Made by a program: the position numbers and the translations under genes
DNA from: Escherichia coli
GTDB taxonomy: Bacteria; Pseudomonadota; Gammaproteobacteria; Enterobacterales; Enterobacteriaceae
Strand: one strand, 5' to 3'
Assembly (NCBI RefSeq): GCF_016903815.1
Contig: NZ_CP069970.1
Length of the DNA: 39,407 nt
The notes under the pieces: model-generated
Database searches by the model: none
What the model saw: only the letters and a program-made list of their open reading frames with translations
What the model was told of the DNA's origin: nothing
In this document: piece by piece, positions 1-34,831 of the stretch
How the letters are laid out: every line of letters begins with the position of its first letter
Numbering within the stretch: position 1 is the stretch's first letter

Positions 1-1255
1 ATTCCGTTGATTTTACGGATTCACGAAAAAACTTTCTCAATTCATAATGGAATGAATCGCTGAAAGTATGGCTAAAACCTGATTCTTTTACTTCATCCAG
101 ATAATTTTTATCGACCTCGTAATTGTAACTTCTTTTGATAGAGGTATAGGTATCTGTTAATCGTTCAATCCCTGTTCTGAAGACGCTAATATTTTTATCG
201 TTAAGCGCATCGTAAGCCTCACCAAAGAAATCAAAAGTAATATCATCCAGATCCCTTTTGTTCTCAGGGCGCCCTGTTACAATACAACGACGCAATAACC
301 ACCGCCACAATCCTGAAACAGGCTTGACATTTCTCGATGACAATAAAGTCAGTTCACCAGAACGAACACCAAAGGAGGGCAGAATGATAATTTCCGCATC
401 CTGCCCATCTACCGCCTCTAGCCTTCTCAGTAGGAATAAAAAAGGCCTTATATAAATATCAGTAACAACATCACCTTTACTGATATTAGATTTAACATGA
501 AGCATATCGTCTTTCTCAGAAATTGAGTAAGGCAGTATTTTAATATTACCGAGGTAATTTTGACCTACATGACCCCCCGGGTAACGCAGCCACGCCTGAA
601 TATATGCTTTTTGAATGTAGTCATCCACTATCTGAGATAAAAAAAACTTATTCATTAGTCGATCGCGTTTGCTCTCATCCAGGACATTCAGACTGGAGAC
701 GAAGAACCAGATAGACAGAATAATATTGAAAAGCATCCACACAAAAGCTGTTACGGCAAAAGAAGTATTAAGATATCCGTCACCTATAGATAACGTCATA
801 CCGCCCAGCACGACAAATGCAGCCAGTGAAAGACCACTCAGGCCCGCAAACATATATCCGGAATGAAGTTGATACGCGGACTGAATATGGATCCTTGCTG
901 ATTTCTTTTGAAATAAAACACTTATAAGCCCCACAACCAGCGGAAATACAATACCGATTATAGTCAACTGGCTACCCAGTAAATTAGACATCCAATCTGA
1001 AAGCTTGGTAATGCCCTTAAAATGCTGCACAGCGAAAGGTAGCAATACAGGGCGAAAATATTCGACCACGCCAACAGCCCCGAAGGCTGCGGACCATAGA
1101 ACCAGCATAGCCCGGACGTAATGGGTGGAGCAGGAAACAAGTATTCTCTCCACCGGGTTCCAGCGAAGTTTTTTGTAATCCCGGTTCGACTTCAGGCTCC
1201 GTCGGAGTTCAGCTCTCACCTGCCATGAGACACTTTTCAGAAGTTTTCCAAACAT
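1..1255 (-). CDS. membrane protein, N-terminal part (gene runs off the window start)
   Basis: Hand translation of the minus strand: ATG at 1255-1253 (MFGKLLKSVSWQVRAELRR...), frame open to position 1 (at least 418 codons). Four hydrophobic helices in the first ~190 aa, then a soluble domain. AGGA lies 6 nt upstream of the ATG. Absent from the ORF track because no stop lies inside the window. Confidence 0.45.
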   Translation of the reverse strand, partial: MFGKLLKSVSWQVRAELRRSLKSNRDYKKLRWNPVERILVSCSTHYVRAMLVLWSAAFGAVGVVEYFRPVLLPFAVQHFKGITKLSDWMSNLLGSQLTIIGIVFPLVVGLISVLFQKKSARIHIQSAYQLHSGYMFAGLSGLSLAAFVVLGGMTLSIGDGYLNTSFAVTAFVWMLFNIILSIWFFVSSLNVLDESKRDRLMNKFFLSQIVDDYIQKAYIQAWLRYPGGHVGQNYLGNIKILPYSISEKDDMLHVKSNISKGDVVTDIYIRPFLFLLRRLEAVDGQDAEIIILPSFGVRSGELTLLSSRNVKPVSGLWRWLLRRCIVTGRPENKRDLDDITFDFFGEAYDALNDKNISVFRTGIERLTDTYTSIKRSYNYEVDKNYLDEVKESGFSHTFSDSFHYELRKFFRESVKSTE

Positions 1256-1414
1256 AGATATCCTGCGTATTACATAAGAAATTTTATGAATAATAAGCGG
1301 TAGGAACCTTTTTTTCTCTGGAAAATGTCACCCGATACCCTTCATACAGGCTTTGTCATCCTAAAATCCGGTTTAACCTTTTTTCGGATCTCCGATAAAA
1401 AAGAAAGAAATAGA

Positions 1415-1545
1415 GATATGCATAAACATATGCCTGGCATCTACATATGCTACCGCTATACATATGCCACACATCTGCCTATACTAAACATATGCACACA
1501 CCCGGTGCTTTGAATATTCCGGATATGTTTCACATATCCATATGC
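1415..1545. repeat. array of five ACATATGC-type direct repeats (CATATG cores near 1427, 1444, 1461, 1489, 1539) upstream of vapB
   Basis: Seen directly: the first three copies are spaced 17 bp apart, iteron-like. The array ends ~20 bp before the vapB start. Confidence 0.4.
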
Positions 1546-1561
1546 TCGGGAGAGAAAGAAC

Positions 1562-1792
1562 ATGAGAACCGTATCGATATTTAAAAATGGCAACAACCGC
1601 GCCATCCGTCTGCCTCGTGATCTGGATTTTGAGGGGGTGAGCGAGCTCGAGATCGTCCGGGAAGGGGACAGCATCATCCTGCGCCCCGTCCGGCCAACCT
1701 GGGGATCATTCCTAGAGTACGAAAAAGCCGATCCAGATTTTATGGCGGAGCGCGAGGATGTTGTCAGCGACGAAGGGCGATTTAACCTGTGA
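1562..1792 (+). CDS. vapB: VapB/VagC-family antitoxin (AbrB/SpoVT-type)
   Basis: 76-aa protein MRTVSIFKNGNNRAIRLPRDLDF..., closely resembling plasmid VagC antitoxin. Its stop overlaps the start of the next gene (GTGA). Confidence 0.85.
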   Translation: MRTVSIFKNGNNRAIRLPRDLDFEGVSELEIVREGDSIILRPVRPTWGSFLEYEKADPDFMAEREDVVSDEGRFNL

Positions 1793-2205
1793 ACAAGACT
1801 TATATGCTTGATACCTGTATCTGCTCGTTCATCATGCGTGAACAGCCAGAAGCCGTCCTGAAGCGTCTGGAGCAGGCGGTGCTACGCGGCCACCGTATAG
1901 TGGTCTCGGCCATCACCTACTCTGAAATGCGCTTCGGGGCTACCGGCCCAAAGGCCTCACCACGTCACGTCCAACTGGTCGATGAATTCTGCGCCCGCCT
2001 CGATGCCATCCTGCCCTGGGATCGCGCCGCAGTAGACGCCACCACGAAGATTAAAGTGGCACTGCGGCTGGCCGGGACGCCGATCGGCCCGAACGACACG
2101 GCGATTGCCGGGCACGCCATCGCCGCCGGGGCGATACTGGTAACGAATAATACAAGAGAATTTGAGCGAGTGCCTGACCTGGTGCTGGAAGACTGGGTGA
2201 AGTAA
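1789..2205 (+). CDS. vapC: VapC/VagD-family PIN-domain toxin
   Basis: PIN signature: N-terminal MLDTCIC (Asp), internal acidic residues, C-terminal TNNTREFERV. GTG start overlaps the vapB stop by 4 nt. Confidence 0.85.
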   Translation: MNKTYMLDTCICSFIMREQPEAVLKRLEQAVLRGHRIVVSAITYSEMRFGATGPKASPRHVQLVDEFCARLDAILPWDRAAVDATTKIKVALRLAGTPIGPNDTAIAGHAIAAGAILVTNNTREFERVPDLVLEDWVK

Positions 2206-2242
2206 GACACTCTTTTCAAAGTCAGGAGATAAGGGCACCAAG

Positions 2243-2267
2243 AAACAGCCCGTATACGGGCTGTTTT
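2243..2267. terminator. hairpin AAACAGCCCG-TATA-CGGGCTGTTTT between convergent vapC and ATPase genes
   Basis: Perfect 9-10 bp stem with A-run upstream and T-run downstream, placed between two convergent gene ends (2205 and 2367). Confidence 0.6.
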
Positions 2268-2366
2268 AACAGATATCTACAGTAAGCGGTCCTAAACTGT
2301 AGGGTATCTTCGAAGATCAGACTATCAGGGAGCTAAAGCCTATCTTCCGGCGGCAAAAACAGTGGC

Positions 2367-4505
2367 TCAAGCGATACGGGCAACCGAGCTCTGGTTTGCT
2401 GCCGGTGGCAGGGCGATGAGCTTGTCACATTCCATAATCACGTACTCCGGGATGAGATCGAATCTGGACGGATCTAGTTGACAGATGAACTCATTTTCAA
2501 TGTGGTACGTTTCGTTAACGAATTTTCGTATTACCGGATGGTCCTGATCCAGTTCCAGTAAACGGAATACCTGCAGTTTTTCATAGCCGTTACGACAGCG
2601 ACGGTACAGGTTTTTTATTTCATCTGGGCTGCTGACGAGAGCCTGAAGTCGCGGGTAATCAAAACTGTCCACATACTCCCGGATATCCCGCAAGGCCTGC
2701 TGAATTTTCTCAGGAGCCATTTTGGGATAGCCCGAGCCCGCAGCGGCAGGCTCGCGATAATCCAGCGGGGCGACGCGTCGATGGAATAGATTGGATAGAA
2801 GCTGATAAGCATCACCACGTTCGTCAACGATTTCAAAGTAGCGACGAAGATAGATGAGCTTAATGATCTCCTCACAGTCTGCTGACGCGGTGATGGATTT
2901 GCAGATCTGCATGAATGTCATGATATCGCCGTCGTTAACAGGTAATTCTTCTATGACTCCAGCAGACAGGCGCAGGCAGGAGGCGGTCACCTGATTACTG
3001 AACAACCTTCTGACTGACTTCAGCGTGTCAATCACAGGCTCCACGTCATGCGTCAGCATAAGTACAGTCCGGTTCTTCAGGCATTCACCACTTGCACGTC
3101 TGAACAGCATTTCAAGAATGGCAAACTTCTTGTTTTTATCAAAAGAAGATATGGGATCATCAAGGATAATCAGTCCCGGGTTTTTTGACAGGCATTCATA
3201 CATGAATAACACAATCGCAAAGGCGTTCCGTTCTCCATAGCTGAGATGCTGGCTACCGCCGCTGACGTACCCGTCAAAATCTATGTGTCGTAGCCTGAGT
3301 TTTCTCTGCTCTCCCTCGCCGGCTATATCCACCCTGTATTTATAGCCTGCATAAGTGAGGAAATTATTGATGTTTGTTTTGTGCTGTGCGATCAGCCGGA
3401 TCATGCTGTCCCGGTGCCGGTTAATTTTTCCCTGCAGCGGTCCGGCAAGGTTTATCAGGTCCATAAGGGCCGCGTTCAGTCTGTCGGTGATCCCCTGCAT
3501 GAGTTCGGATTGCAGATCAGGGAAGAACTGCAGGTCAATCAACCTGGCAGTGAGCACCTCCCGAACGTTCTGCTGTTCCTGCAGGCTGAAAACATTCAGG
3601 CCTCTCAGCGCAGTGAGTTTCTCTGTCAGCGTATCGGTCTGGCGTTTCAACGCCACTAGGTACTCGATATGTTCGGCTTCCGGACCGTTCTGAAGCATAG
3701 TAATGGCCAGAAGGCGTTCTCTGGCGCTCTCCGTCAGGTAATTACCGAGGTTTTCCACCAGTCTGATGATAGCGGTCAGGTTTTTAATGGTGGATTTATC
3801 GTATTCCTCTCTGACTTGGCGAATTTGTGCTTCCTTTCCCGTGATATCACCGGTACAGAACGGACAGCAGCCATCCGAAAGGGGCGAAAACTCGAGTCCC
3901 TTTGTCTGCCAGTCAATCCATTCCACGCGGCGTTCACTGCGGATGTAGGGTTGATAGTTCTCAAGACCAGCCGGAATGTGGTGTATTTTATTTCCGCCTG
4001 ACAGACCTCTCATGCCGGTTGAAGAACGTGAAATCCCGGAACTGGTTGATTTGAAAGCATTACTGAGTTCCTGTAGATGGTCTATCAGAGAGTTCAGCTC
4101 AGTGTGATCCGTGAAAACAGCCCGGATCTTTTGCGTCATTTCTTCTATTTCACGCTCTCTTTCCGCATGGGCTTGATTGCGGATAAGAATATTAAAGCTG
4201 TCACTGATGAGCTCGTCCGGTTGGAACGTAAACTGACTGACGTACTCCTCGTTGAAGCACATCACGTCCCCAATCCCGTCAGCACCGATGACAATGGGCC
4301 CGGTGCTATCGGGGTTTTCTCCGCGCAGCCGGAAGGGCATCAGTGCCTGTAGTCCCTGAATGTCGTCCCGCGCCGCACAGCTTATGGCCCGTGACAGCGT
4401 ACTTTTTCCAGTACCATTTGGCGCAAACTTAATGTTCAGTTTATCGGCAGTGAGGGTGATATGTGCTCGTACGATGTTATTGCAGTGGCGTATTTCAATG
4501 TCCAT
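2367..4505 (-). CDS. ABC-type ATPase with coiled-coil zinc hook (AAA_13 family; RloC/PrrC-like candidate)
   Basis: 712 aa. Walker A FAPNGTGKST (aa 27-36), CCPFC zinc-hook-like motif inside a long predicted coiled-coil insert, ABC signature-like LSYGERN, Walker B LIILDDP, H-loop LTHD. C-terminal region has R-x3-E (LRRYFE) followed by His (LFHRR), reminiscent of the PrrC/RloC anticodon-nuclease triad. Confidence 0.6.
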   Translation of the reverse strand: MDIEIRHCNNIVRAHITLTADKLNIKFAPNGTGKSTLSRAISCAARDDIQGLQALMPFRLRGENPDSTGPIVIGADGIGDVMCFNEEYVSQFTFQPDELISDSFNILIRNQAHAEREREIEEMTQKIRAVFTDHTELNSLIDHLQELSNAFKSTSSGISRSSTGMRGLSGGNKIHHIPAGLENYQPYIRSERRVEWIDWQTKGLEFSPLSDGCCPFCTGDITGKEAQIRQVREEYDKSTIKNLTAIIRLVENLGNYLTESARERLLAITMLQNGPEAEHIEYLVALKRQTDTLTEKLTALRGLNVFSLQEQQNVREVLTARLIDLQFFPDLQSELMQGITDRLNAALMDLINLAGPLQGKINRHRDSMIRLIAQHKTNINNFLTYAGYKYRVDIAGEGEQRKLRLRHIDFDGYVSGGSQHLSYGERNAFAIVLFMYECLSKNPGLIILDDPISSFDKNKKFAILEMLFRRASGECLKNRTVLMLTHDVEPVIDTLKSVRRLFSNQVTASCLRLSAGVIEELPVNDGDIMTFMQICKSITASADCEEIIKLIYLRRYFEIVDERGDAYQLLSNLFHRRVAPLDYREPAAAGSGYPKMAPEKIQQALRDIREYVDSFDYPRLQALVSSPDEIKNLYRRCRNGYEKLQVFRLLELDQDHPVIRKFVNETYHIENEFICQLDPSRFDLIPEYVIMECDKLIALPPAANQSSVARIA

Positions 4506-4653
4506 TTATCTGTCCTTTGCCAGTTATTCCGGGGGGATTCATATCCTGCCGCAAAATGTGCCCGCATGCTGTGATGCAGATACATAATACATTTCGTTTA
4601 TACCATTGCTTACACCTCTCCGAGATGTTCATATCAGAAACAAAGATTAGGTC

Positions 4654-4679
4654 GATCCGACTTTTACTTTTTTCGGATC
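4654..4679. promoter_or_regulatory. inverted repeat GATCCGA-N12-TCGGATC in the divergent ATPase/NTase intergenic region
   Basis: Seen directly. Its right arm and T-run (TTTTTTCGGATCTC, ~4668-4681) recur nearly identically at ~1379-1392 upstream of vapB. Confidence 0.3.
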
Positions 4680-4969
4680 TCTGGAGAGGGGAAGAAGGAT
4701 TTGTGCTGATGATGCAATACTAATGATATATTTTGAACTTAATTGCATTATTGCTTATCTGGCATTAATAACTGAAATACTTTGCATAATTATCAATGAA
4801 AGAACGAGGCTCATATTTCCCATGTAAATTATATGCCCTTGCAGAGAGCGAGACGGTAGTGAACTTGCGGCACTAATAATAAACTGTACCGACTCTTCCC
4901 GGGCACTGGAATGTTCAGATGTACGACAGAGCCCCGCGCCTTTTGCAATAAATAATTAAAGGACTGAAC

Positions 4970-5965
4970 ATGGCGACCACAGTAATAGCTGCCTTTAACG
5001 AATTTATGAAAGATACCGTGAATCTCAAAAAGGCAGATACCGATGACGCGCGTGCAAGTCGCGACTGGCTTATCGGTAAGATGAATGATTTTGAGAAGGA
5101 CGATAAATTTCCGGTGAGTTTTCCAGCGATCCATATTGCCTTTGGCTCCTTTGCCAGAAGAACCAAAATCCGTCCGCTTGATGATATCGATCTGATGTTT
5201 GGCTTAACCGGGCAAGGTGCCACCTATACCATCCTGAGTGACCGGATAACTGTAACCTCCTCCGGAGAGGGGTCACGTCTGCACAGTTACCGCCATTCCG
5301 GAGCTGACACCGTCTGCTCCGTCAGAATTCTGAATGCCTTTAAAAACCGCCTGCAGGACATTGCCCAGTACGCCCAGGCTGATATCAGGCGTAACCAGGA
5401 AGCTGTCACGCTGAAACTGGTCAGCAAGGACTGGAATTTTGACATCGTCCCCTGCTTTATTACCAGCGAAGATGCCTTTGGACGGACTTACTACCTGATC
5501 CCCGATGGCAACGGCCACTGGAAGTTTACCGACCCCCGTAAAGACAGGGACAGAGTCACTACTATCAATGTGCAGAATAACGGCAATGTGCTCAATGTCA
5601 TCAGAGCAGTCAAATACTGGCAGCGGCGACCGACGATGCCATCCATGAGTTCCTACCTGCTGGAAACGCTGATTCTGGACTATTACGCTGGCAGGACATC
5701 CTGCTCATCGTTTGTTGACATGGAGCTGGAAGCGCTTTTCCGCCACCTTGGTCAATCCGTGCGGTACTCTGTCAACGATCCCAAAGGCATACAGGGTGAT
5801 ATCAACTCACTTTCAGCCGAGGCACGTAAGGCGATATCGGACAGATGTTATCTCGATGCGCAAAAGGTATCGGAGGCGAGATGGTTTGAAAATAATAAAG
5901 AGTATGAAAAATCCATCAATAAATGGCGCGATGTGTTCGGGCCATTCTTTCCTGTTTACGGGTGA
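4970..5965 (+). CDS. Pol-beta superfamily nucleotidyltransferase, SMODS / cGAS-DncV-like (CD-NTase-like)
   Basis: 331 aa. Active-site pattern G59-S60, then D72-x-D74 (HIAFGSFARRTKIRPLDDIDLMF), third Asp D158 in NFDIVPCF. Good SD (AAAGGA) before the ATG. Confidence 0.65.
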   Translation: MATTVIAAFNEFMKDTVNLKKADTDDARASRDWLIGKMNDFEKDDKFPVSFPAIHIAFGSFARRTKIRPLDDIDLMFGLTGQGATYTILSDRITVTSSGEGSRLHSYRHSGADTVCSVRILNAFKNRLQDIAQYAQADIRRNQEAVTLKLVSKDWNFDIVPCFITSEDAFGRTYYLIPDGNGHWKFTDPRKDRDRVTTINVQNNGNVLNVIRAVKYWQRRPTMPSMSSYLLETLILDYYAGRTSCSSFVDMELEALFRHLGQSVRYSVNDPKGIQGDINSLSAEARKAISDRCYLDAQKVSEARWFENNKEYEKSINKWRDVFGPFFPVYG

Positions 5966-5968
5966 ATC

Positions 5969-6901
5969 ATGAATGCCATTTACACAAACCAGTCGACCAG
6001 AGAAAACATGGATTTACTGTATGCGCAGGCCCGTGTCTACGACAGGGTAAAAAACTGGAACAGACTGAATTTTCTCTTCAGCATCATCGTACCGCTCCTG
6101 CTTTCTTTCGTTACCGTATACAACCGGAGCCGGGAATTTGTCGATTCAGAGTTGTTGTCTTCGCTGTTGGGGTTATATGGACTCCTGGTGCTTACCTTTA
6201 ACATTGTTATCAGTGGACACATCTCGGCTCTGCGCAGGAAGGCAGCCTCAATCCAGGAAATGTACGACTGCCGGGTACTTGGCATCCGGCGTAATGAACT
6301 GAAGGTGGAGGAGATCCCACGGGATGACATCATCCGGGAAGCTGCATATTTTAGAGACAGCCCGGAAAAAGCACGAAAGCGATTTGGCGAAGAGGGGTGG
6401 TACGTCAGTAAGGTGTATGACGCGCCGCAGGCCGTAATGGCGCTCCTTTGCCACGGAAAAAATCTCGGCTGGGACAAATCGCTCAGGGAGGTTCTGCACG
6501 TATTTTATCTTTCCGCTTTTATTGTCTCGCCTGTCGCGATGCTTGTTTACGGCATCGTCATGAAATCCGGGCTGAATGAGATCCTCTTCTATGTGGTGTT
6601 CACACTGCCGGTCATCCGCTATTTCTTGCTTCAGTTTCTGGATAATCGCAGCAGTATGAAAAGAAGCGAGAAGCTGAAAAAGTACGTTGAGAAGGAATTA
6701 TCCGGCATAAGGGTGTCCGGAAGGGCAGAAGAAGAGCAACTGGCTTATACGCTCCGGAATATCCAAGATGAGATGTTTACCTACCGGGCCTCATGTCCGC
6801 CCGTACCCAACGGTATTCAGCTGATAATGAAGCCCAAAAATGAACGAATTTATGTTGATTACTTTGAAACAAATCTGAAGGAGCTGCACCTTCAGAAGTA
6901 A
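5969..6901 (+). CDS. 4-TM membrane protein, putative effector partner of the nucleotidyltransferase
   Basis: 310 aa. ATG is 3 nt after the NTase stop, with an SD inside the NTase 3' end. Hydrophobic helices at ~aa 33-51 and 62-86, two more at ~175-225, a ~90-aa cytoplasmic insert and an ~80-aa C-terminal tail. Confidence 0.55.
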   Translation: MNAIYTNQSTRENMDLLYAQARVYDRVKNWNRLNFLFSIIVPLLLSFVTVYNRSREFVDSELLSSLLGLYGLLVLTFNIVISGHISALRRKAASIQEMYDCRVLGIRRNELKVEEIPRDDIIREAAYFRDSPEKARKRFGEEGWYVSKVYDAPQAVMALLCHGKNLGWDKSLREVLHVFYLSAFIVSPVAMLVYGIVMKSGLNEILFYVVFTLPVIRYFLLQFLDNRSSMKRSEKLKKYVEKELSGIRVSGRAEEEQLAYTLRNIQDEMFTYRASCPPVPNGIQLIMKPKNERIYVDYFETNLKELHLQK

Positions 6902-7037
6902 TCCCTCCTTAGCTCCGGTGTAGGATTTACGTATGCCGGAGCACATCCGATAAACAATTCTTGGTTGCCTGAGTGTCAGCGTAAACCCATAGTCACCTTC
7001 GCCTCAGACGGTTAGTAACACAGGTAATGACTCCAAC

Positions 7038-7541
7038 TTACTGATAGTGTTTTATGTTCAGATAATGCCCGATGACTTTGTCATGCAGCTCCACCGATTT
7101 TGAGAACGACAGCGACTTCCGTCCCAGCCGTGCCAGGTGCTGCCTCAGATTCAGGTTATGCCGCTCAATTCGCTGAGTGTAACGCTTGCTGATTACGTGC
7201 AGCTTTCCTTTCAGGCGGGATTCATACAGCGGCCAGCCATCCGTCATCCATATCACCACGTCAAAGGGTGACAGCAGGCTCATAAGACGCCCCAGCGTCG
7301 CCATAGTGCGTTCACCGAATACGTGCGCAACAACCGTCTTCCGGAGCCTGTCATACGCGTAAAACAGCCAGCGCTGGCGCGATTTAGCCCCGACGTATCC
7401 CCACTGTTCGTCCATTTCCGCGCAGACGATGACGTCACTGCCCGGCTGTATGCGCGAGGTTACCGACTGCAGCCTGAGTTTTTTAAGTGACGTAAAATCG
7501 TGTTGAGGCCAACGCCCATAATGCGGGCTGTTGCCCGGCAT
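7038..7541 (-). CDS. insB: IS1 InsB reading frame (expressed as the InsAB' frameshift fusion)
   Basis: Protein matches the IS1 transposase InsB; overlaps insA as in canonical IS1. Confidence 0.9.
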
Positions 7542-7735
7542 CCAACGCCATTCATGGCCATATCAATGATTTTCTGGTGCGTACCGGGTTGAGAAGCGGT
7601 GTAAGTGAACTGCAGTTGCCATGTTTTACGGCAGTGAGAGCAGAGATAGCGCTGATGTCCGGCAGTGCTTTTGCCGTTACGCACCACCCCGTCAGTAGCT
7701 GAACAGGAGGGACAGCTGATAGAAACAGAAGCCAC
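7460..7735 (-). CDS. insA: IS1 InsA
   Basis: [30 protein letters not shown]... matches IS1 InsA; GTG start. Confidence 0.9.
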
Positions 7736-7948
7736 AGGAGCACCTCAAAAACACCATCATACACTAAATCAGTAAGTTGGCAGCATCACCGGCATTCAAA
7801 ATCATTATGACCGCGATCTATTTCTGGCTGTTCTCTATCACTTTTGGCGGCATCGTCGCTCATGGGTAAGGGGAGTATATTAGCCATTTGGAACCCCACG
7901 GTCTCTTGCGGGTTTAATTAAGAACCCGCAAGAAAAATACGAATTGGG

Positions 7949-11188: not shown

Positions 11189-12441
<1,253 letters not shown>

Positions 12442-16038: not shown

Positions 16039-16055
16039 ATTGCTCTAATGTATTG
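16039..16055 (+). promoter_or_regulatory. C1 operator-like site ATTGCTCTAATGTATTG upstream of lpa
   Basis: Matches the P1 C1 operator 17-mer consensus at ~14/17 positions, 2 nt after the pdcB stop and ~70 bp before lpa. Confidence 0.6.
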
Positions 16056-28063: not shown

Positions 28064-31000
28064 TTATGCGTATTGTTGGATGACGGCCAGAACGTCCGCC
28101 ACGTTGTGTTTTGTCTCGATAATCCACCAGTTACCCGGGAAATCGCTGTTCTTCGCCTTCGCTGGCAGCCAGCGAGCGCCGAATTTCGCCTTGATTGCGT
28201 CTTTCGCACGGAAAAGAACGCCTTTCATGCCTGAGGCTTCCTGAAGCCCAAATACCTCGCCAGCGGCGAATTTTGGTGCGTACATCATCTTCAGGTCGGC
28301 GGTGGATACGCGATAATTCAGACCAAGAGACTGAGCTATGCTGGTGGCATCACCCTGTATTGATGATAACTCTTCTTGTTTCTCGTTTCTGGCGGCAATT
28401 TCTTCCTCCGTGATGTTGCCAAGGGCCAGGTTTATCCGATCAGCGTCGGCCTGTTTCTCTTCATCGGTGCGTCCGGCAAGAACCGTGTTAACTCTCTGCA
28501 ATATCTCCACATGATTCTTGCGCATGCTGAGCAATTCCGGCGTAACCTCGTTAAGATCCACCAGCCCAAGGATGGCAAGGTCGGAAAACATTGATACCAG
28601 GTTGTAGGTCATGCGATAGCTGAGTTGACCATAGGCTGATGGCAACTTCACCGCATCCATTTGATAGGCATCCATAAATTTAGAGCCGTCGTTTACGACA
28701 TCCGCAATTGCCGGTGTGATTTTTCCTGTGGTGGCGGCCTCCCTGATTGCTGTTACCCACGATTGAGTCAGCGCGGCGACTGCATGATTCAGATTGGCTT
28801 TCCGTTCTGCTGCAATGCGCGCACTTGCTGCGTCCATTGCCTGCTTGATCTCGTCTTTATTGCTGTAAATGCCAATGGTGCCAAACTGTGCTGTGGTGAT
28901 CTCATAATCTGACGCCCGGAACTCATGGGTACCGAAAATGGCATTGGTGACCTCAAGTTCAGAATCCCCGTTACGAGTAGCCCCCTGGCTTGTTTTCTCC
29001 GGCATTTTTGCGATCGCATCCGCTATTTTCTCCTGAATTGCTTCAGGGGATAGCGTATCTCCGTATGACGCGATTACATCGCCATAATTGGAGCCAAACA
29101 ATTCAACCAGGAATGTTTCTGCCGAACGGATCTGGCGGTTATTCCCTTCCGACATCATACCAAGCACCCATTTTGCAATTGACGACTTCAGCGCGCCGTC
29201 ACGGCGATCCGGGTAAACCGCATGCTTCAGTGGGTCCGTATAGGTGCCAACAAAATCAATGCTATAGCCTGACTCTGTAGTCTGAACGCCGTATGAGTCA
29301 GTGATTTTGATCATGCCGCGCTGCTGGAAACGGTAGAAATCGTCACAGGAAATGATGTCGTTAATCCCGGCGATGGAGACGCCACCACTGATTTTCTGCA
29401 TAACAGCATCTTCATCGGGAGTTACATCCACCTGTTTATCCAGCGTCTTCACATCCCAGTTACCCGATTTGGTGCCTTTGAAGGTAAAGATGATCTCCAC
29501 GTCTGCGCGCTGGCTGTCGAAGTCCAGCGACTTAATGCGAACGATATCACCGGCACAATCATAGTATTGGCCTACACGCCATGAGCGATCGCCGATAACA
29601 AGGAACTCATTCGCATGGTTAACCAGATCAGGATCAACATCCAGAATGCCTTTATTTATTGCATCCTCCACCAGCGGGCGCAGGCGTTTGATATCCGTCG
29701 CGGCCTTCTGAGTACGGTTCAATAATTTCTCATAGCGGGAGATGGCCTGAGAGATATTAGCCTTGCGCTGAATGGCGCTTTTCAACGACGCGCGATACTG
29801 TGCTAACAACATACGGTCTGTGTGATGGACGCTACCCCAGCGGGCTTTCCAGTCTGCGTTATCAGCTGCTTTGGCCATTACCGCCTGTTTGAATTTGGCG
29901 ACGTCGGCGGTGGTCTTTTCAAGTTCCGCTTTGCTTCGCTCCAATTCAGCGGTAAGTACCTCCACATCCTCACCAGCTGCGTGCTGCGCCTTGATGTAGT
30001 TCTGAAGGTCGATAGTAGCCTGTTCTTTCTGGCGAGCGCGTTTCGCAGCTTTCGCCTTATCCATTTGAACCTGCATCATTACCAGACGTTCGCCATCATC
30101 CTTAGCGGTATACATCTGCATTTCGATCATATCGTTGGCGTCGGCGTTCTCCATTTCTGACTTATCTGAACGGAGGATATCGGAGATCCAGCCTGCTTTA
30201 CGCTTCAGCGTCTTCAGTCGGTATTCATCGAAAGAACCCTTGCCGCAGTAGTAATGAACGCGAACGCTTGCACGGTTGGAGCCAACTCGAGCACCGCGAC
30301 CGTTACGCTGTGCGATACTGGCTGGTGTCCATGGCAACGTCAGATGATGGATGTCAGTCGTTCCTCGATGCAGGTTGATACCCACCTCTGCCTTTTTGTT
30401 GCAGATGATGATCGGAGTCCGGCCCTCCTGGAAGTCGGCTGCAATCTTTTCCAGACCGCCCAACGACATTTCATTTTGCTGCGCGATATAGGCGTCATAC
30501 AGAGCCATTTGCTCGTTGTATTTCGCTATCTGTGCATCTGTTGGTTCATCCGGTAACTCTTTCGGCGGTTTAACCGCTTTCAGTTTCTTACCGGTTTTAC
30601 CTGCCTCGGCAACCGTCTGAGCATTCAGGATCCCCACCTTTGAAGGTTCAAGGTTAAGAGCATTGCAGATAATGCGCTTGAGCTTCTGGTGCTGCGTTTT
30701 TTCGTCCGTGAAGATGATTTGCTTACCTTCCGGGAAAAACGCCTTCAGCGTGGCGATCAGCTTCGCGTATTTGGGTGTAACGGGGTGAGTTACGGTCTGT
30801 TCGTCAATGCCAAACTTGGCCAGGCGATTATTCACTTCCTGCTCAAATGCTTCCGGTACCTGCAACTGAATAAACTCGCCCTTATCTATCAGGGAGTATT
30901 GCGATTGCTGCGTGATCGAATCATCACTGTCGTCGTCTTCGCTGGTGGCTTGTTTAGGCAAACTGTCCGCCAGCTGCTGCACCGCATCGGCGTACTCCGG

Positions 31001-34000
31001 CAGGAAACGATAGGTGATCCTGCGATAGTACAGGTCCATGTCAGTACATACGCGGTCCATATCCCTGATTATTGAGAAGATCGGACGGGCTTTCTCGTGC
31101 TCAATCACGCCGTCTTCATTGACCGAGGTCGTTACGCCATTGTTGGCTTTGGCTGCCGCTTCCGCCTGCTGACGCAATTCTTCATACGCCGCCAGTTGTT
31201 CTTCCGTAAGTGGTGCATCCTGCTGGTGTTCGTCCAGTTCCGGGATCTCCACGGTATCCTTAACGTCTTCCGCCGTTTTAAGCGTTGTCCAGCGATGGAA
31301 TATGCCGCGCAGCGCATCAAGGTTTTCAAAGCCCACCAGCGCCATTTTTTCTTCAACTTCACCGCTGATTTTCTGTACCGTTTCCAGCCTGGTCTTGCCG
31401 AAGAATTTAACGAAGTCATCAGGACCGTAGATCCCCATCTTCTGCCAGTATTCCTTCGGCAGCACATGAGAAAGCATGTTGTATGCATCGATCGGGGTGT
31501 TAACGACTGGCGTTGCAGTCAGGAGAACCGGTCCGCGCCCACCATTCTTTTTCATCAGGTACGCGTTTTTAATTGCCATATCCCGCGCCGATTGCGCCAC
31601 CGCGCTGGTGGGCAGATAGGCCAGTTGTGACGCTTCGCGACCATTTTTATAGCTATTGCGGTAGTTGTGACCTTCGTCAGCGATCACACTATCGAAGCCC
31701 ATATCCTCAAAGTACGGATACTTCTCTGCTTTTTCGGTGCCGGTATCTGAATACTCCGACAATACCCGGCGACGCGCGGCCTCTTTGCGGTGGGAGTCGG
31801 AGTCCATTGCGCTGGCTACGCGCCCGGCGGCAACGAAGTCATAAAGCATATCCTGTGCATGCTCATCTACGGTGTCATCACGTAGCGGAATGCGGGCGTA
31901 TTGTTCTTTGGTAAACACGACTGCACGGTAATTTGAGTGCGGGATCGCGTTCATCCGCGCCGTGATAGTGGCTTCATCTGCCAGTTTTAGGGCATCGCGC
32001 ATAACTGGAGTGCCATCAGTACCAAGAACAGGTTTACCGTTCTCATCGAGCACCGGCACCTGGCGAATCTGATCGCCATCCATCAGCACATCAAGACCGA
32101 CGAACAGGTAGTTACTGAATGCCTCTTCACTCAGGAATTCTTTTGCTTCGTAATACCAGTTTTCCAGCACTGATTTAGGCACTACATACGCAGTACGGGT
32201 GGAGCGACCGTTCTCATAGTTGAACGCCTCAAGCGCCAGCGCGGTCGTAGTTTTACCCAGCCCGGTGCCGAAGCCCAGGATGCCGCGCCCATCTTCGGAC
32301 AGTCGGCGCACTTCGCTATTCTGGTAATCAAATGGCTGGCGCTTACCGCTTAATCCCTTCAACCCAAGCGGATCGCCAGAGTGTTCATACGGGATATTGC
32401 TATTGAACACATCGTTGTATTTGGCAACCAGTTCATCGTAGCGATCGTGCGTCTTGATCCACTTATTGAACTGGTCCTCAAGCAGTGCCATCTGCTCGCG
32501 GTAGCCGTTCGCCGTCGCGCTATCTTTGCCACCGATACGCGCACCATTGAGATACTTTTCCAGCTGTGCCGGGAACCCGGTCGCGTTTTCACCTGATTTA
32601 CGGTCCCACTCGTAGCGGATCTCGCCTGTTTCTTTATCCTTGCGCTGGACGACACCGTATCGGTGCCCGACGAACAGGCCATCACCACCGTGATAGGTGT
32701 CAGAAACCATTTCGTCGCCTTCCAGCTGCACTGACTGCACATAGCGCAGATCCGGATAGCCGTTTTCCTGCAAAAACTCCAGAATGACGGAGCGGTCGAA
32801 CCAACGGCTATTGAGCTTAAAGCGGATATTCTCTGCTGGCGTCTTGATGCGCTTCTCTTCGATCGCTGCCAGCTGATTAAGGACGTTGTTCTTTACTGGA
32901 CCGTCGGGGAGTGTGGCAAGGAATTCCTGTTTTGGAGCCACTATCTCGTTAATGTCGCCGCTGGTGGCGCGGGCGAACGGAACAATCCCGCCATACGGAG
33001 AAACCGCAATACCAGGAGTGCTGGCCAATAAATTAAGCAACTCTTCATCACTGGCTGGCAGTTCGCCGGTAAACGCAAGGCGGAAATCATCGAGCTGGAT
33101 TGGATCGCGGGTAAGATCGCTATAGAGATAACGCAGGGTGTCCTGATAGCTGGTGGAGTCATAACTGGCGCTGGAATCATGCGTAACCAGCTTTCCTGTT
33201 AGCTCGTCAGAAATAGTGCCATCCAGCTTAATTGCACCACGGAAAGCAAACCAGGCGCGCGCACCGCTTCCCGATAATTTAGCTATCGGACCGCGACCGG
33301 GGTTACCAAAACGGTCAATCTCTGCCTGCAAACGGGACACCAGAGAAAGGCGCTGCTGTTCGATTTGTTCAGCACTATGCCCGGCGGCCTTCATATCCTG
33401 ATATTCAATTAACATCCGGCCAATCATCGCCCCACGATACAAGCGTTCACGGTATTTTTCAGGCTGGCTGTTAATCCAGTCCACCAGCTGCACCATATCG
33501 TCGCTGATTGATGTGGTGTACTTATCGCGGACATTTGCCATCTGGGTAAATGTCATACCGAGACGGCCTTCTGTTGTAGTCAGGTTACGCTGAAGAGCCT
33601 CCCAGCTATCCGCGCCATAACTGGCAGCATCAATCTTAAGCTCCTTACCAGCATCAGCTTCAATCCAGCGACCACCAGCATATTTTTGCCATACGCCATT
33701 AATCAGGCGCATTTCCCCTTCATCAACAACATCTGCGGTCGGTGACGGTTCAGCCATATCGAGCAAAGACCAGTCGATACGACTTTCGAAACGATGAATC
33801 AGCTTCGCTTTAAGAGCCTGGTTATCAATCTGACCGTCGGCACGAACCTCAATACGCCCCTGGAAGCCCTTTTCCTGGGTGCCATGAACAAACCGGCGGC
33901 CATCCTTTTCAAACCACTTGCCAGAAATAAACGTTGGCCAAAGCACATTTGCCGATTCAAGAGTGCTTTCATCCACCAGGGGGATTTTCTCAGCCATCTC

Positions 34001-34831
34001 TGCCGGATGTTTGCGCATCAGCACCACATCAACGACTGTACTGGTCCCGTTTGCGTCAAAAGTACCGGTAGGCAAGCGGTGAGCGCCAAGAAATTCAGCT
34101 TTACGGGATAAGCGCAGGCGTAACCGCTTCATGTTTGAACCTGAAACAATGGACGGCGGCACAATCACGCACATGAATCCGCCTGGCTTTATCTTGTCCA
34201 GCATGCGGAGCATGAAGTAAGAACCCATGTCCGTTTCTTCTGCGTAAGGCTTATCGATGTTGCGTGTGTTATCACGACCGCCGAACGGAACGTTACCCAC
34301 AACATGGTCGAATGAATCGTTAGGCGTGCTTATAGCCAGCTGTTCGAACGGGGAAATCTGTACGCTGTCTTCCGGGTGTAACAACTGGTTTATACGACCG
34401 GAAACACTGCTGATCTCAGTCGCGGTCATCACCGTACCAACCGGTTTTGTCTCATTAAAAACGCCGGTTCCCGCCGATGGTTCCAGAGTGTTACCTACGT
34501 CCGCGCCGTAGAGCTTCATGATCTCCCAGACACCTTCAGCGATCGGCTTTGGTGTGTAATATTCGGAGACGGACCCGCCAATGCCGCCTTCACCGGTGTA
34601 CCCAGCCAGGATCTGGCGCTGTTCATCTGTCAGTGTCGCGCCGTCCACCAGCGAATTAAGCAAATCTATCGCCTTCTGATTCGCCTCCCGGCGCAGTCGG
34701 TCATAGCTTTTGCCTTCCACCTTTTCCACGCCGTATTTAATCGGCGCTCGGTGAGATGTTATTGCCCTAATGTATTTCAATATTTCGCTGACACTTGAAC
34801 AGCGAAACACCCCCATAAATAGCTTGTTCAT
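28064..34831 (-). CDS. darB: DarB, defence against restriction (methyltransferase-helicase, virion-packaged)
   Basis: 2255 aa, the same length as P1 DarB; N-terminal methyltransferase-like region and central DExH helicase motifs. Confidence 0.9.
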   Translation of the reverse strand: MNKLFMGVFRCSSVSEILKYIRAITSHRAPIKYGVEKVEGKSYDRLRREANQKAIDLLNSLVDGATLTDEQRQILAGYTGEGGIGGSVSEYYTPKPIAEGVWEIMKLYGADVGNTLEPSAGTGVFNETKPVGTVMTATEISSVSGRINQLLHPEDSVQISPFEQLAISTPNDSFDHVVGNVPFGGRDNTRNIDKPYAEETDMGSYFMLRMLDKIKPGGFMCVIVPPSIVSGSNMKRLRLRLSRKAEFLGAHRLPTGTFDANGTSTVVDVVLMRKHPAEMAEKIPLVDESTLESANVLWPTFISGKWFEKDGRRFVHGTQEKGFQGRIEVRADGQIDNQALKAKLIHRFESRIDWSLLDMAEPSPTADVVDEGEMRLINGVWQKYAGGRWIEADAGKELKIDAASYGADSWEALQRNLTTTEGRLGMTFTQMANVRDKYTTSISDDMVQLVDWINSQPEKYRERLYRGAMIGRMLIEYQDMKAAGHSAEQIEQQRLSLVSRLQAEIDRFGNPGRGPIAKLSGSGARAWFAFRGAIKLDGTISDELTGKLVTHDSSASYDSTSYQDTLRYLYSDLTRDPIQLDDFRLAFTGELPASDEELLNLLASTPGIAVSPYGGIVPFARATSGDINEIVAPKQEFLATLPDGPVKNNVLNQLAAIEEKRIKTPAENIRFKLNSRWFDRSVILEFLQENGYPDLRYVQSVQLEGDEMVSDTYHGGDGLFVGHRYGVVQRKDKETGEIRYEWDRKSGENATGFPAQLEKYLNGARIGGKDSATANGYREQMALLEDQFNKWIKTHDRYDELVAKYNDVFNSNIPYEHSGDPLGLKGLSGKRQPFDYQNSEVRRLSEDGRGILGFGTGLGKTTTALALEAFNYENGRSTRTAYVVPKSVLENWYYEAKEFLSEEAFSNYLFVGLDVLMDGDQIRQVPVLDENGKPVLGTDGTPVMRDALKLADEATITARMNAIPHSNYRAVVFTKEQYARIPLRDDTVDEHAQDMLYDFVAAGRVASAMDSDSHRKEAARRRVLSEYSDTGTEKAEKYPYFEDMGFDSVIADEGHNYRNSYKNGREASQLAYLPTSAVAQSARDMAIKNAYLMKKNGGRGPVLLTATPVVNTPIDAYNMLSHVLPKEYWQKMGIYGPDDFVKFFGKTRLETVQKISGEVEEKMALVGFENLDALRGIFHRWTTLKTAEDVKDTVEIPELDEHQQDAPLTEEQLAAYEELRQQAEAAAKANNGVTTSVNEDGVIEHEKARPIFSIIRDMDRVCTDMDLYYRRITYRFLPEYADAVQQLADSLPKQATSEDDDSDDSITQQSQYSLIDKGEFIQLQVPEAFEQEVNNRLAKFGIDEQTVTHPVTPKYAKLIATLKAFFPEGKQIIFTDEKTQHQKLKRIICNALNLEPSKVGILNAQTVAEAGKTGKKLKAVKPPKELPDEPTDAQIAKYNEQMALYDAYIAQQNEMSLGGLEKIAADFQEGRTPIIICNKKAEVGINLHRGTTDIHHLTLPWTPASIAQRNGRGARVGSNRASVRVHYYCGKGSFDEYRLKTLKRKAGWISDILRSDKSEMENADANDMIEMQMYTAKDDGERLVMMQVQMDKAKAAKRARQKEQATIDLQNYIKAQHAAGEDVEVLTAELERSKAELEKTTADVAKFKQAVMAKAADNADWKARWGSVHHTDRMLLAQYRASLKSAIQRKANISQAISRYEKLLNRTQKAATDIKRLRPLVEDAINKGILDVDPDLVNHANEFLVIGDRSWRVGQYYDCAGDIVRIKSLDFDSQRADVEIIFTFKGTKSGNWDVKTLDKQVDVTPDEDAVMQKISGGVSIAGINDIISCDDFYRFQQRGMIKITDSYGVQTTESGYSIDFVGTYTDPLKHAVYPDRRDGALKSSIAKWVLGMMSEGNNRQIRSAETFLVELFGSNYGDVIASYGDTLSPEAIQEKIADAIAKMPEKTSQGATRNGDSELEVTNAIFGTHEFRASDYEITTAQFGTIGIYSNKDEIKQAMDAASARIAAERKANLNHAVAALTQSWVTAIREAATTGKITPAIADVVNDGSKFMDAYQMDAVKLPSAYGQLSYRMTYNLVSMFSDLAILGLVDLNEVTPELLSMRKNHVEILQRVNTVLAGRTDEEKQADADRINLALGNITEEEIAARNEKQEELSSIQGDATSIAQSLGLNYRVSTADLKMMYAPKFAAGEVFGLQEASGMKGVLFRAKDAIKAKFGARWLPAKAKNSDFPGNWWIIETKHNVADVLAVIQQYA

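Follow-up and report, generated by a model that had tools for sequence, protein, structure and literature searches.

The rfsF site and the recombinase ResD of plasmid F have been known since the 1980s, and the original experimental definition of the site reportedly goes back to O'Connor et al. and to Lane et al., both in 1986. On RepFIA-type and related plasmids of the Enterobacterales, ResD is encoded beside oriV1-ccdAB and serves multimer resolution. Counterparts of the system occur on R64, on IncR plasmids and, as crs/RsdB, on Salmonella virulence plasmids. Moreover, rfsF has been described as a point at which gene sets are exchanged, both on IncI1 plasmids (PMC8004404) and on IncR/IncFII plasmids, for which ResD-mediated acquisition of segments has already been proposed (PMC9412624).

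Here we analyze a stretch of 39,407 nucleotides from Escherichia coli (contig NZ_CP069970.1; hereafter the window), in which two divergent intergenic regions contain one copy each of a short repeat, called site A and site B below. The two copies belong to a resD-linked family of inverted-repeat sites, stand in a co-oriented array, and enclose the points at which homology between plasmids switches. Judging from comparisons of sequence, they are very probably secondary, half-degenerate targets of ResD of the rfsF type, forming joints between the cassettes of the array, with ResD as the presumed enzyme. They share with rfsF the design AGATCCG-N14-CGGATCT, the arm AGATCCGAAAA and the flanking tract, and are oriented as is the canonical site beside oriV1-ccdAB-resD on identical IncF plasmids. 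The difference is that the copies in the window appear to be secondary, each having one degenerate arm and a different centre, and to flank cassettes, not to act as the single resolution site.

Two further systems are comparable in organization. As in integron arrays (IntI, attI, attC), a tyrosine recombinase gene lies by the primary site and is followed by co-oriented cassettes, each with an imperfect site that is split at a fixed point on insertion, and the cargo includes toxin-antitoxin (TA) and anti-phage genes. However, the rfsF array has no IntI-type integrase, no GTTRRRY core and no long folded attC with extrahelical bases; with up to three genes and promoters of their own, its cassettes exceed those of integrons in size (2-4 kb), the arrays are short (2-4 sites), and recombination presumably takes place between double-stranded sites. 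An attC identity of sites A and B was rejected, as they lack the GTTRRRY core and the neighboring recombinase is ResD of the Phage_integrase family. The pdif modules of Acinetobacter, in turn, resemble the rfsF cassettes in that their boundaries are 28-bp sites (layout 11-6-11) that stem from a system for multimer resolution, and in that they occur in varied plasmid contexts, but they depend on host XerCD and not on a plasmid-encoded ResD, their arm sequences are unrelated, and the modules (resistance, toxin-antitoxin) typically lie between inverted sites, whereas the rfsF-type sites considered here are all direct. A Xer site (dif, cer or pdif) was also rejected as a candidate: the layout is similar, but the AGATCCGnnnn arms, which are unlike those of dif and cer, share no sequence with the XerC and XerD arms, which read about GGTGCGCATAA and TTATGTTAAAT around a 6-8-bp centre.

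While rfsF and its role at mosaic junctions are thus already known, an integron-like array of defense and TA cassettes may be undescribed. In the literature searched, no description was found of arrays of secondary, half-degenerate rfsF-like sites, or of such arrays delimiting TA and anti-phage cassettes across genera.

A short repeat in two divergent intergenic regions

The window contains exactly two copies of TTTTTTCGGATCTC, at 1379-1392 and 4668-4681, each on the plus strand and part of a wider repeat of 27 nt (1366-1392 versus 4655-4681, 22 of 27 positions identical); the longest exact stretch common to the two copies is the 15-mer CTTTTTTCGGATCTC. Site B is in the gap that separates vapB (1562) from a 1039-aa gene (start at 1255, minus strand), and site A in the gap from the start of a gene for a 712-aa ATPase (4505, minus strand) to that of a cyclase/nucleotidyltransferase gene (4970), both gaps being divergent. 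The original prediction, that a 14-mer recurs in two intergenic gaps with the same arm geometry, is thus confirmed by exact copies starting at 1379 and 4668, except that the ATCCG and CGGAT arms, given there as some 12 nt apart, are spaced by 14 nt in each copy. The search for additional copies that it had suggested, run on plasmid pEcIMT16316 (145,883 bp), found the 14-mer only twice.

Exact direct repeats of 15 nt were present at a mean of 0.83 per dinucleotide-shuffled window, with at least one in 49% of the shuffles, and the window itself contains several further repeats of 26-27 nt with 81% identity. The 15-mer repeat alone is therefore at chance level, and its significance must rest on independent evidence.

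Identity with rfsF and linkage to resD

The 28-mer AGATCCGAAAACCCCAAGTTACGGATCT begins at nt 45,922 of plasmid F (NC_002483.1), between pifC and oriV1-ccdA-ccdB-resD, and at nt 43,620 of R64, upstream of resD. The first of these coordinates is the position at which, according to the paper on pEC958 (PMC4398462), the RepFIA region begins with 'two rfsF sites', and the second is the start of the segment 'rfsF to yfcA' in a paper on IncI1 plasmids (PMC8004404); the assignment of rfsF to the 28-mer rests on the coordinates quoted in these two papers.

ResD of the IncF plasmids, a protein of 268 aa from the Phage_integrase family, was used as a query to fetch 68 loci from one-genome-per-species collections, covering Klebsiella, Enterobacter, Citrobacter, Kluyvera, Raoultella, Pantoea, Brenneria, Hafnia, Buttiauxella, Ewingella, Rahnella, and other genera. 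The rfsF sites of F and R64 and 37 resD-adjacent sites in other species have the same AGATCCG-N14-CGGATCT design, and exact ATCCG-N14-CGGAT was found 37 times in the ResD loci, versus approximately one occurrence expected by chance in 1.09 Mb. A weight matrix of 46 nt was then built from 36 resD-adjacent sites of other species, the window not being included in the training set. It yielded 49 matches above 14 bits in 54 ResD loci, all 49 on the strand of resD and upstream of it, at a median distance of 1.5 kb; where 2.5 kb or more of sequence upstream was available (46 loci), 39 loci had a match. In about 1.1 Mb of shuffled sequence, and likewise in 50 shuffles of the 146-kb plasmid, the scores never rose above 10 bits. 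Canonical sites score at least 27.6 bits (median 48.6). The scores of site A (22.1 bits) and site B (31.9 bits) are below this median, one arm being degenerate in each, and we count this against our assignment. Of 72,556 plasmid records, at least 5,000 contain a homolog of ResD with 80% identity or more.

In F-like plasmids, approximately 170 bp from the canonical rfsF toward ccdA, AAAGTCGGATC occurs beside TTCCGGAAAGT repeats, in three of the loci at the following positions:

L001, 1808-1845
L006, 2098-2136
L005, 2303-2340

These repeats resemble the degenerate arm of site A (CGATCCGACTTT), and may represent the 'second rfsF site' of pEC958 or accessory ResD-binding sequences.

Anatomy of sites A and B

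The two sites and their flanks are as follows; the canonical orientation of rfsF corresponds to the minus strand of the window in both cases.

1364-1391, minus strand: site B, 28 bp, rfsF-like, AAATCCGGTTT AACCTT TTTTCGGATCT, 31.9 bits; degenerate arm 1364-1374, centre 1375-1380, conserved arm 1381-1391
1392-1416, plus strand: purine-rich tract after site B; beyond it, as far as about 1500 and still upstream of vapB, ACATATGC-type repeats
4653-4680, minus strand: site A, 28 bp, rfsF-like, CGATCCGACTT TTACTT TTTTCGGATCT on the plus strand, 22.1 bits; degenerate arm 4653-4663, 6-bp centre 4664-4669, conserved arm 4670-4680
4681-4699, plus strand: purine-rich tract ctggagaggggaagaagga, adjacent to the conserved arm of site A and part of the CBASS cassette

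The matrix scores in the minus orientation reflect an intact AGATCCGAAAA arm and a pyrimidine-rich flank in each site, the latter being the purine-rich tract on the plus strand of the window. The other arm is degenerate, CGATCCGACTT in site A and AAATCCGGTTT in site B. With CGATCCG-N14-CGGATCT in site A and AAATCCG-N14-CGGATCT in site B, each retains 13 of the 14 core positions. The equivalent pyrimidine-rich flank is kept beside the canonical sites of 36 loci, and the leader found on the vapB side of site B adjoins the canonical rfsF in other genera.

Repeats of the ACATATGC or CATCTGC type occupy window positions 1410-1500, between site B and vapB, and the same repeat-rich leader follows rfsF in several other genera; presumably, these are VapB operator repeats.

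Host plasmid and site array

Over positions 1-7000, the window has 100% identity to many E. coli plasmids of the IncF (FIA/FIB/FII) group; 50,697 phage records contain no match to this stretch, by which a phage origin of this island was ruled out. In one of the identical plasmids, pEcIMT16316 (NZ_CP023816.1), the gene order is resD (annotated as 'site-specific integrase'), ccdB, ccdA, three small genes (one of them DUF3800), the 1039-aa gene, vapB, vapC, AAA ATPase (minus strand), nucleotidyltransferase, S-4TM effector, IS1, hsdR, hsdS, and hsdM; the window begins within the 1039-aa gene.

For the matrix scan, pEcIMT16316 was reassembled from five pieces (145,883 bp). Only four sites were found, at record positions 44319, 46274, 49683 (site B), and 52972 (site A), all co-oriented, within 8.7 kb beside oriV1-ccdAB-resD, and one per inter-module gap; block shuffles of the plasmid gave 0.12 matches above 8 bits and none above 10. 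Sites B and A are 5.4 and 8.7 kb from the canonical site, and the four 6-bp centres on this one plasmid are TGCCGG, AATGAG, AACCTT, and TTACTT. The sites are found in what look like 'regulatory regions' because those gaps are the joints between gene cassettes.

The window itself holds no copy of resD, a fact that also counts against the assignment; on plasmids identical to window positions 1-7000, resD is located approximately 5 kb past the left end. On pEcIMT16316 it is 6-10 kb from the sites, all four of which are in the canonical orientation, and the window is chimeric. An intI1 gene is present on a related plasmid about 55 kb away, in a resistance region.

Homology breakpoints and the point of exchange

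Both intergenic regions were compared by BLAST with 72,556 plasmid records, and the matches split at both of them across more than 1,000 plasmids. In the region of site A, hundreds of records match 4664-4969 alone, while others match 4506-4663 alone, placing the break at 4663|4664. In the region of site B, matches begin at window positions 1362-1376 or end at 1394, with a break also at 1374|1375. Breakpoint records at other joints invariably show (A)GATCCG, 14 nt, CGGATCT, and then a purine-rich tract.

The junctions were aligned base by base, each site being divided, in the orientation of the window, into 11 + 6 + 11 nt. Each of the seven pairs compared between plasmids lost homology at site positions 11|12 to 13, among them:

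Site A and the site of a Salmonella plasmid (L003): only the right side in common, with identity beginning at position 12
L003 and the canonical pEcIMT16316 site: the left side alone in common, up to and including position 12
L003 and the canonical R64 site: the left side alone in common, up to and including position 13
Site A and a site of pCS18F-NDM-Fos: only the left side in common, through position 11
Site B and its counterpart in pCS18F-NDM-Fos: only the right side in common, from position 12

According to these junctions, the exchange point lies where the resD-proximal (degenerate) arm meets the 6-bp centre. No coupling of centre and cassette is seen when genera are compared, since eight different centres precede vapBC leaders, so a fixed crossover is documented among close relatives only. 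In the set of 38 canonical sites, the resD-proximal flank was homologous in 408 of 703 locus pairs and the distal flank in 83 of 703. An attempt to place the crossover from these 38 sites of different species was abandoned, since divergence scatters the alignment ends too widely and only the asymmetry of the flanks is usable.

A synthetic query representing precise excision of the vapBC/ATPase cassette, that is, the left part of site B joined to the right part of site A, had no full-length match in the 72,556 plasmids. Like the loose relation of centre and cassette across genera, this result weighs against the assignment.

Cassettes and their reuse

With the breakpoints as boundaries, the left part of the window is divided as follows.

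1-1374, minus strand: end of the preceding cassette, with the 5' part of the 1039-aa gene (start 1255), the sequence upstream of this gene, and site B's degenerate arm
1375-4663: vapBC and PDC-S06 ATPase cassette, from the centre and conserved arm of site B to the degenerate arm of site A
1562-1792, plus strand: vapB
1789-2205, plus strand: vapC
2367-4505, minus strand: 712-aa AAA_13 ATPase, full-length match to the candidate defense family PDC-S06
4664-7015: type I CBASS cassette, starting with the centre and conserved arm of site A; the distal arm is missing
4970-5965, plus strand: SMODS cyclase
5969-6901, plus strand: S-4TM effector
7023-7790, minus strand: IS1, which cuts the array short and links the IncF segment with P1-like phage-plasmid DNA

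The same units were found in other combinations on other plasmids:

pJIE186-2, order after resD: site, HTH-RES, site, vapBC and PDC-S06, site, second vapBC with an ATPase and a UvrD-like helicase
Klebsiella pneumoniae p2_FT39: the 1039-aa gene directly after the canonical site
Salmonella, Klebsiella, and Enterobacter plasmids: the CBASS pair directly after the canonical site
Leclercia pP10164-NDM: only the CBASS leader after the site, then IS1

In p2_FT39, it is a copy approximately 85% identical to the end of the preceding cassette that adjoins the canonical rfsF. The vapBC and PDC-S06 cassette has other neighbors in pJIE186-2 and pCS18F-NDM-Fos, and the vapBC/PDC-S06, 1039-aa, and DUF3800 cassettes occur in varying orders. 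Homologs of vapBC with 88-95% amino acid identity are located directly distal of the canonical site, at the spacing seen in the window, in nine other ResD loci or genera. On IncR plasmids, vagCD adjoins rfsF (PMC9412624). Enterobacter plasmid pEh10_1 has the pif operon after the CBASS pair, while in F pif is the first unit after rfsF. In other genera, Tmn is encoded between two sites, as are a HEC-04-like ATPase together with a PDC-S64-like protein, DUF3800 proteins, and one protein with a RelB domain.

The CBASS cassette was met in five different left-hand contexts. Through all of them TTACTT (TTGCTT in Enterobacter) and TTTTCGGATCT are constant, and the left arm varies with the neighbor. The cassette ends in a degenerate arm of its own, GCATCCGGMTT, or GCATCCAGCTT in Salmonella. 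Within window positions 6902-7022, homology to the Salmonella copy ends at about 7015, seven bases (TAACACA) before the inverted repeat of IS1, and it is at this point that the Salmonella, Klebsiella, and Enterobacter copies have the arm of the GCATCC... type and the next site.

In Raoultella, Enterobacter, and Superficieibacter, known or candidate defense genes (Tmn; the HEC-04-like ATPase with the PDC-S64-like protein) lie between a secondary and the canonical site, in these stretches:

L010, 1682-8030
L049, 4366-8530
L015, 4591-8502

A second family of leaders, GCGCGGCGGGAAAcccGCAA..GATATGATAAT..ATAAAATCATAC..TGTGATATTT, is present to the right of sites in several genera, before otherwise different cassettes, and could be a promoter-operator or an accessory recombination sequence. 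Examples are:

L002, 7655-7760
L077, 6137-6240
L036
L010

Alternative explanations

Several other readings of the repeat were considered. First, a dimeric regulator could bind the inverted GATCCG arms as an operator and co-regulate the divergent promoters of vapBC, the ATPase, and CBASS. Both sites do lie in divergent intergenic regions, they are palindromic targets of the kind bound by proteins, and each cassette leader next to a conserved arm has promoter-proximal repeats. Moreover, the D protein of F, besides being a resolvase, was reportedly found by Lane et al. in 1986 to repress transcription, so a side effect of ResD binding on the transcription of the flanking genes is possible. However, the site adjoins unrelated cassettes (pif, Tmn, DUF3800, CBASS, and vapBC), its orientation is fixed relative to resD and not to the adjacent genes, no sigma-70-like hexamers overlap either copy, and an operator leaves the homology breakpoints inside the site unexplained; we therefore regard this reading as unlikely. 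The initial suggestion of a shared protein site or of a small repeated element was right in that the two copies are protein targets of the same kind and members of a repeated family, but not in treating them as promoter-associated hairpins or as operators of the neighboring genes.

Second, and with still lower probability, the sites could serve another enzyme (host XerCD or a second plasmid tyrosine recombinase) or be relics of miniature transposon ends. The 11-6-11 layout does resemble that of Xer sites, a second tyrosine recombinase gene is present on related IncF plasmids, and many plasmids have two or three ResD paralogs. Nevertheless, the sites track the position and orientation of resD in 39 of 46 loci, and all copies are direct, with neither paired inverted ends nor target duplications.

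Third, the repeat could act as structured nucleic acid, either RNA or single-stranded DNA, by terminating transcription, by directing processing, or by signaling single-strand initiation. In favor of this, site A can form a stem of 7 bp (z about -2 to -2.9), and a terminator-like stem with a T-rich run behind it was reported at 4649-4663 by a consensus scan. But the 7-bp stem is weak (about -5 kcal/mol) and closes a 12-nt loop, site B does not form the hairpin in its minimum-energy fold, terminator-like matches are at the level of shuffled sequence, and no plus-strand gene ends there; furthermore, compensatory changes that would preserve pairing are not seen between the two arms of secondary sites, one of them decaying instead. 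The hairpin described in the original prediction was not borne out for much the same reasons, as the single-strand fold is weak, neither site is overlapped by promoter-like hexamers, and a comparison with Rfam gave no match; an intrinsic terminator or a structured RNA was rejected on the same grounds, and a role of this kind seems highly improbable.

Finally, the possibility that unrelated intergenic sequences share a 15-mer and a 5-nt arm by accident, or that the motif is simply as frequent as chance would have it, is negligible despite the approximately 0.8 exact 15-mers per shuffled window and the other 26-27-nt, 81%-identical repeats in the window, because a matrix trained independently scores the sites at 22.1 and 31.9 bits, with nothing above 10 in shuffles, and because the same design recurs at cassette joints in many plasmids.

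Proposed mechanism

The reading of sites A and B as secondary targets of ResD suggests the following scheme. ResD, a tyrosine recombinase, would bind the two arms and exchange strands at the edges of the 6-bp centre, and circular cassettes inserted or exchanged at rfsF by this enzyme would give rise to the joints observed. On insertion of a circle with one site, the conserved arm, the centre, and the leader would travel with the distal cassette, and the degenerate arm would be left at the end of the proximal one. A joint at 11|12 between unlike centres could, speculatively, result from the exchange of one pair of strands followed by replication, for which there are precedents in integron and some Xer reactions. 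The combination of unlike centres and decayed arms would make recombination between neighboring sites inefficient and deletion rare; rare deletion fits both the stability of the array across hundreds of records and the absence of the excision joint.

In its broadest form, which we put forward tentatively and consider somewhat short of an even chance, this scheme makes ResD/rfsF the engine of an integron-like cassette platform on F-like, IncR, IncI1, and related plasmids of Enterobacterales, in which each TA or anti-phage circle would bring a half-degenerate site, exchange would occur at a fixed point, and co-oriented arrays would be reshuffled. The cargo of such a platform may include vapBC, Xre-RES, pif, CBASS, PDC-S06, Tmn, and Gabija-like ATPase-helicase pairs.

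Remainder of the window

The window is chimeric, consisting of the IncF segment (1-7022), IS1 (7023-7790), and P1-like phage-plasmid DNA (7790-39407), the latter being 99.9% identical to Escherichia phage vB_EcoM-673R5 over 15000-39407. The join between the IncF and P1-like parts is spanned by no PLSDB record and no complete E. coli genome, and may be either a rare IS1-mediated cointegrate or an assembly artefact. The P1-like part includes an open reading frame of 2255 aa (28064-34831), which has the length of DarB. A motif of about 17-23 nt containing ATTGCTCTAAT recurs in the P1-like part at 16039, 19345, 22540, 24096, 24572, and 34761; it resembles the asymmetric operator of the C1 repressor of phage P1, and may be a version of it. 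In hsdS, which encodes a type I specificity subunit, the 12-nt unit GGTAAGCTCAGC is repeated 3.5 times (11831-11872, minus strand); in type IC enzymes such as EcoR124I/II, the copy number of the hsdS repeat sets the length of the spacer in the recognition sequence.

Significance for plasmid biology

The assignment of the repeat to the rfsF family explains why one short motif is present in several 'regulatory' gaps of very common clinical plasmids of E. coli, Klebsiella, and Salmonella: these gaps are recombination joints. If the secondary sites are, or were, substrates of ResD, they would offer plasmids a simple route to gain and exchange stability and anti-phage modules, and, if this is true, the site model would be a practical marker for delimiting cassettes and finding new defense genes near resD.
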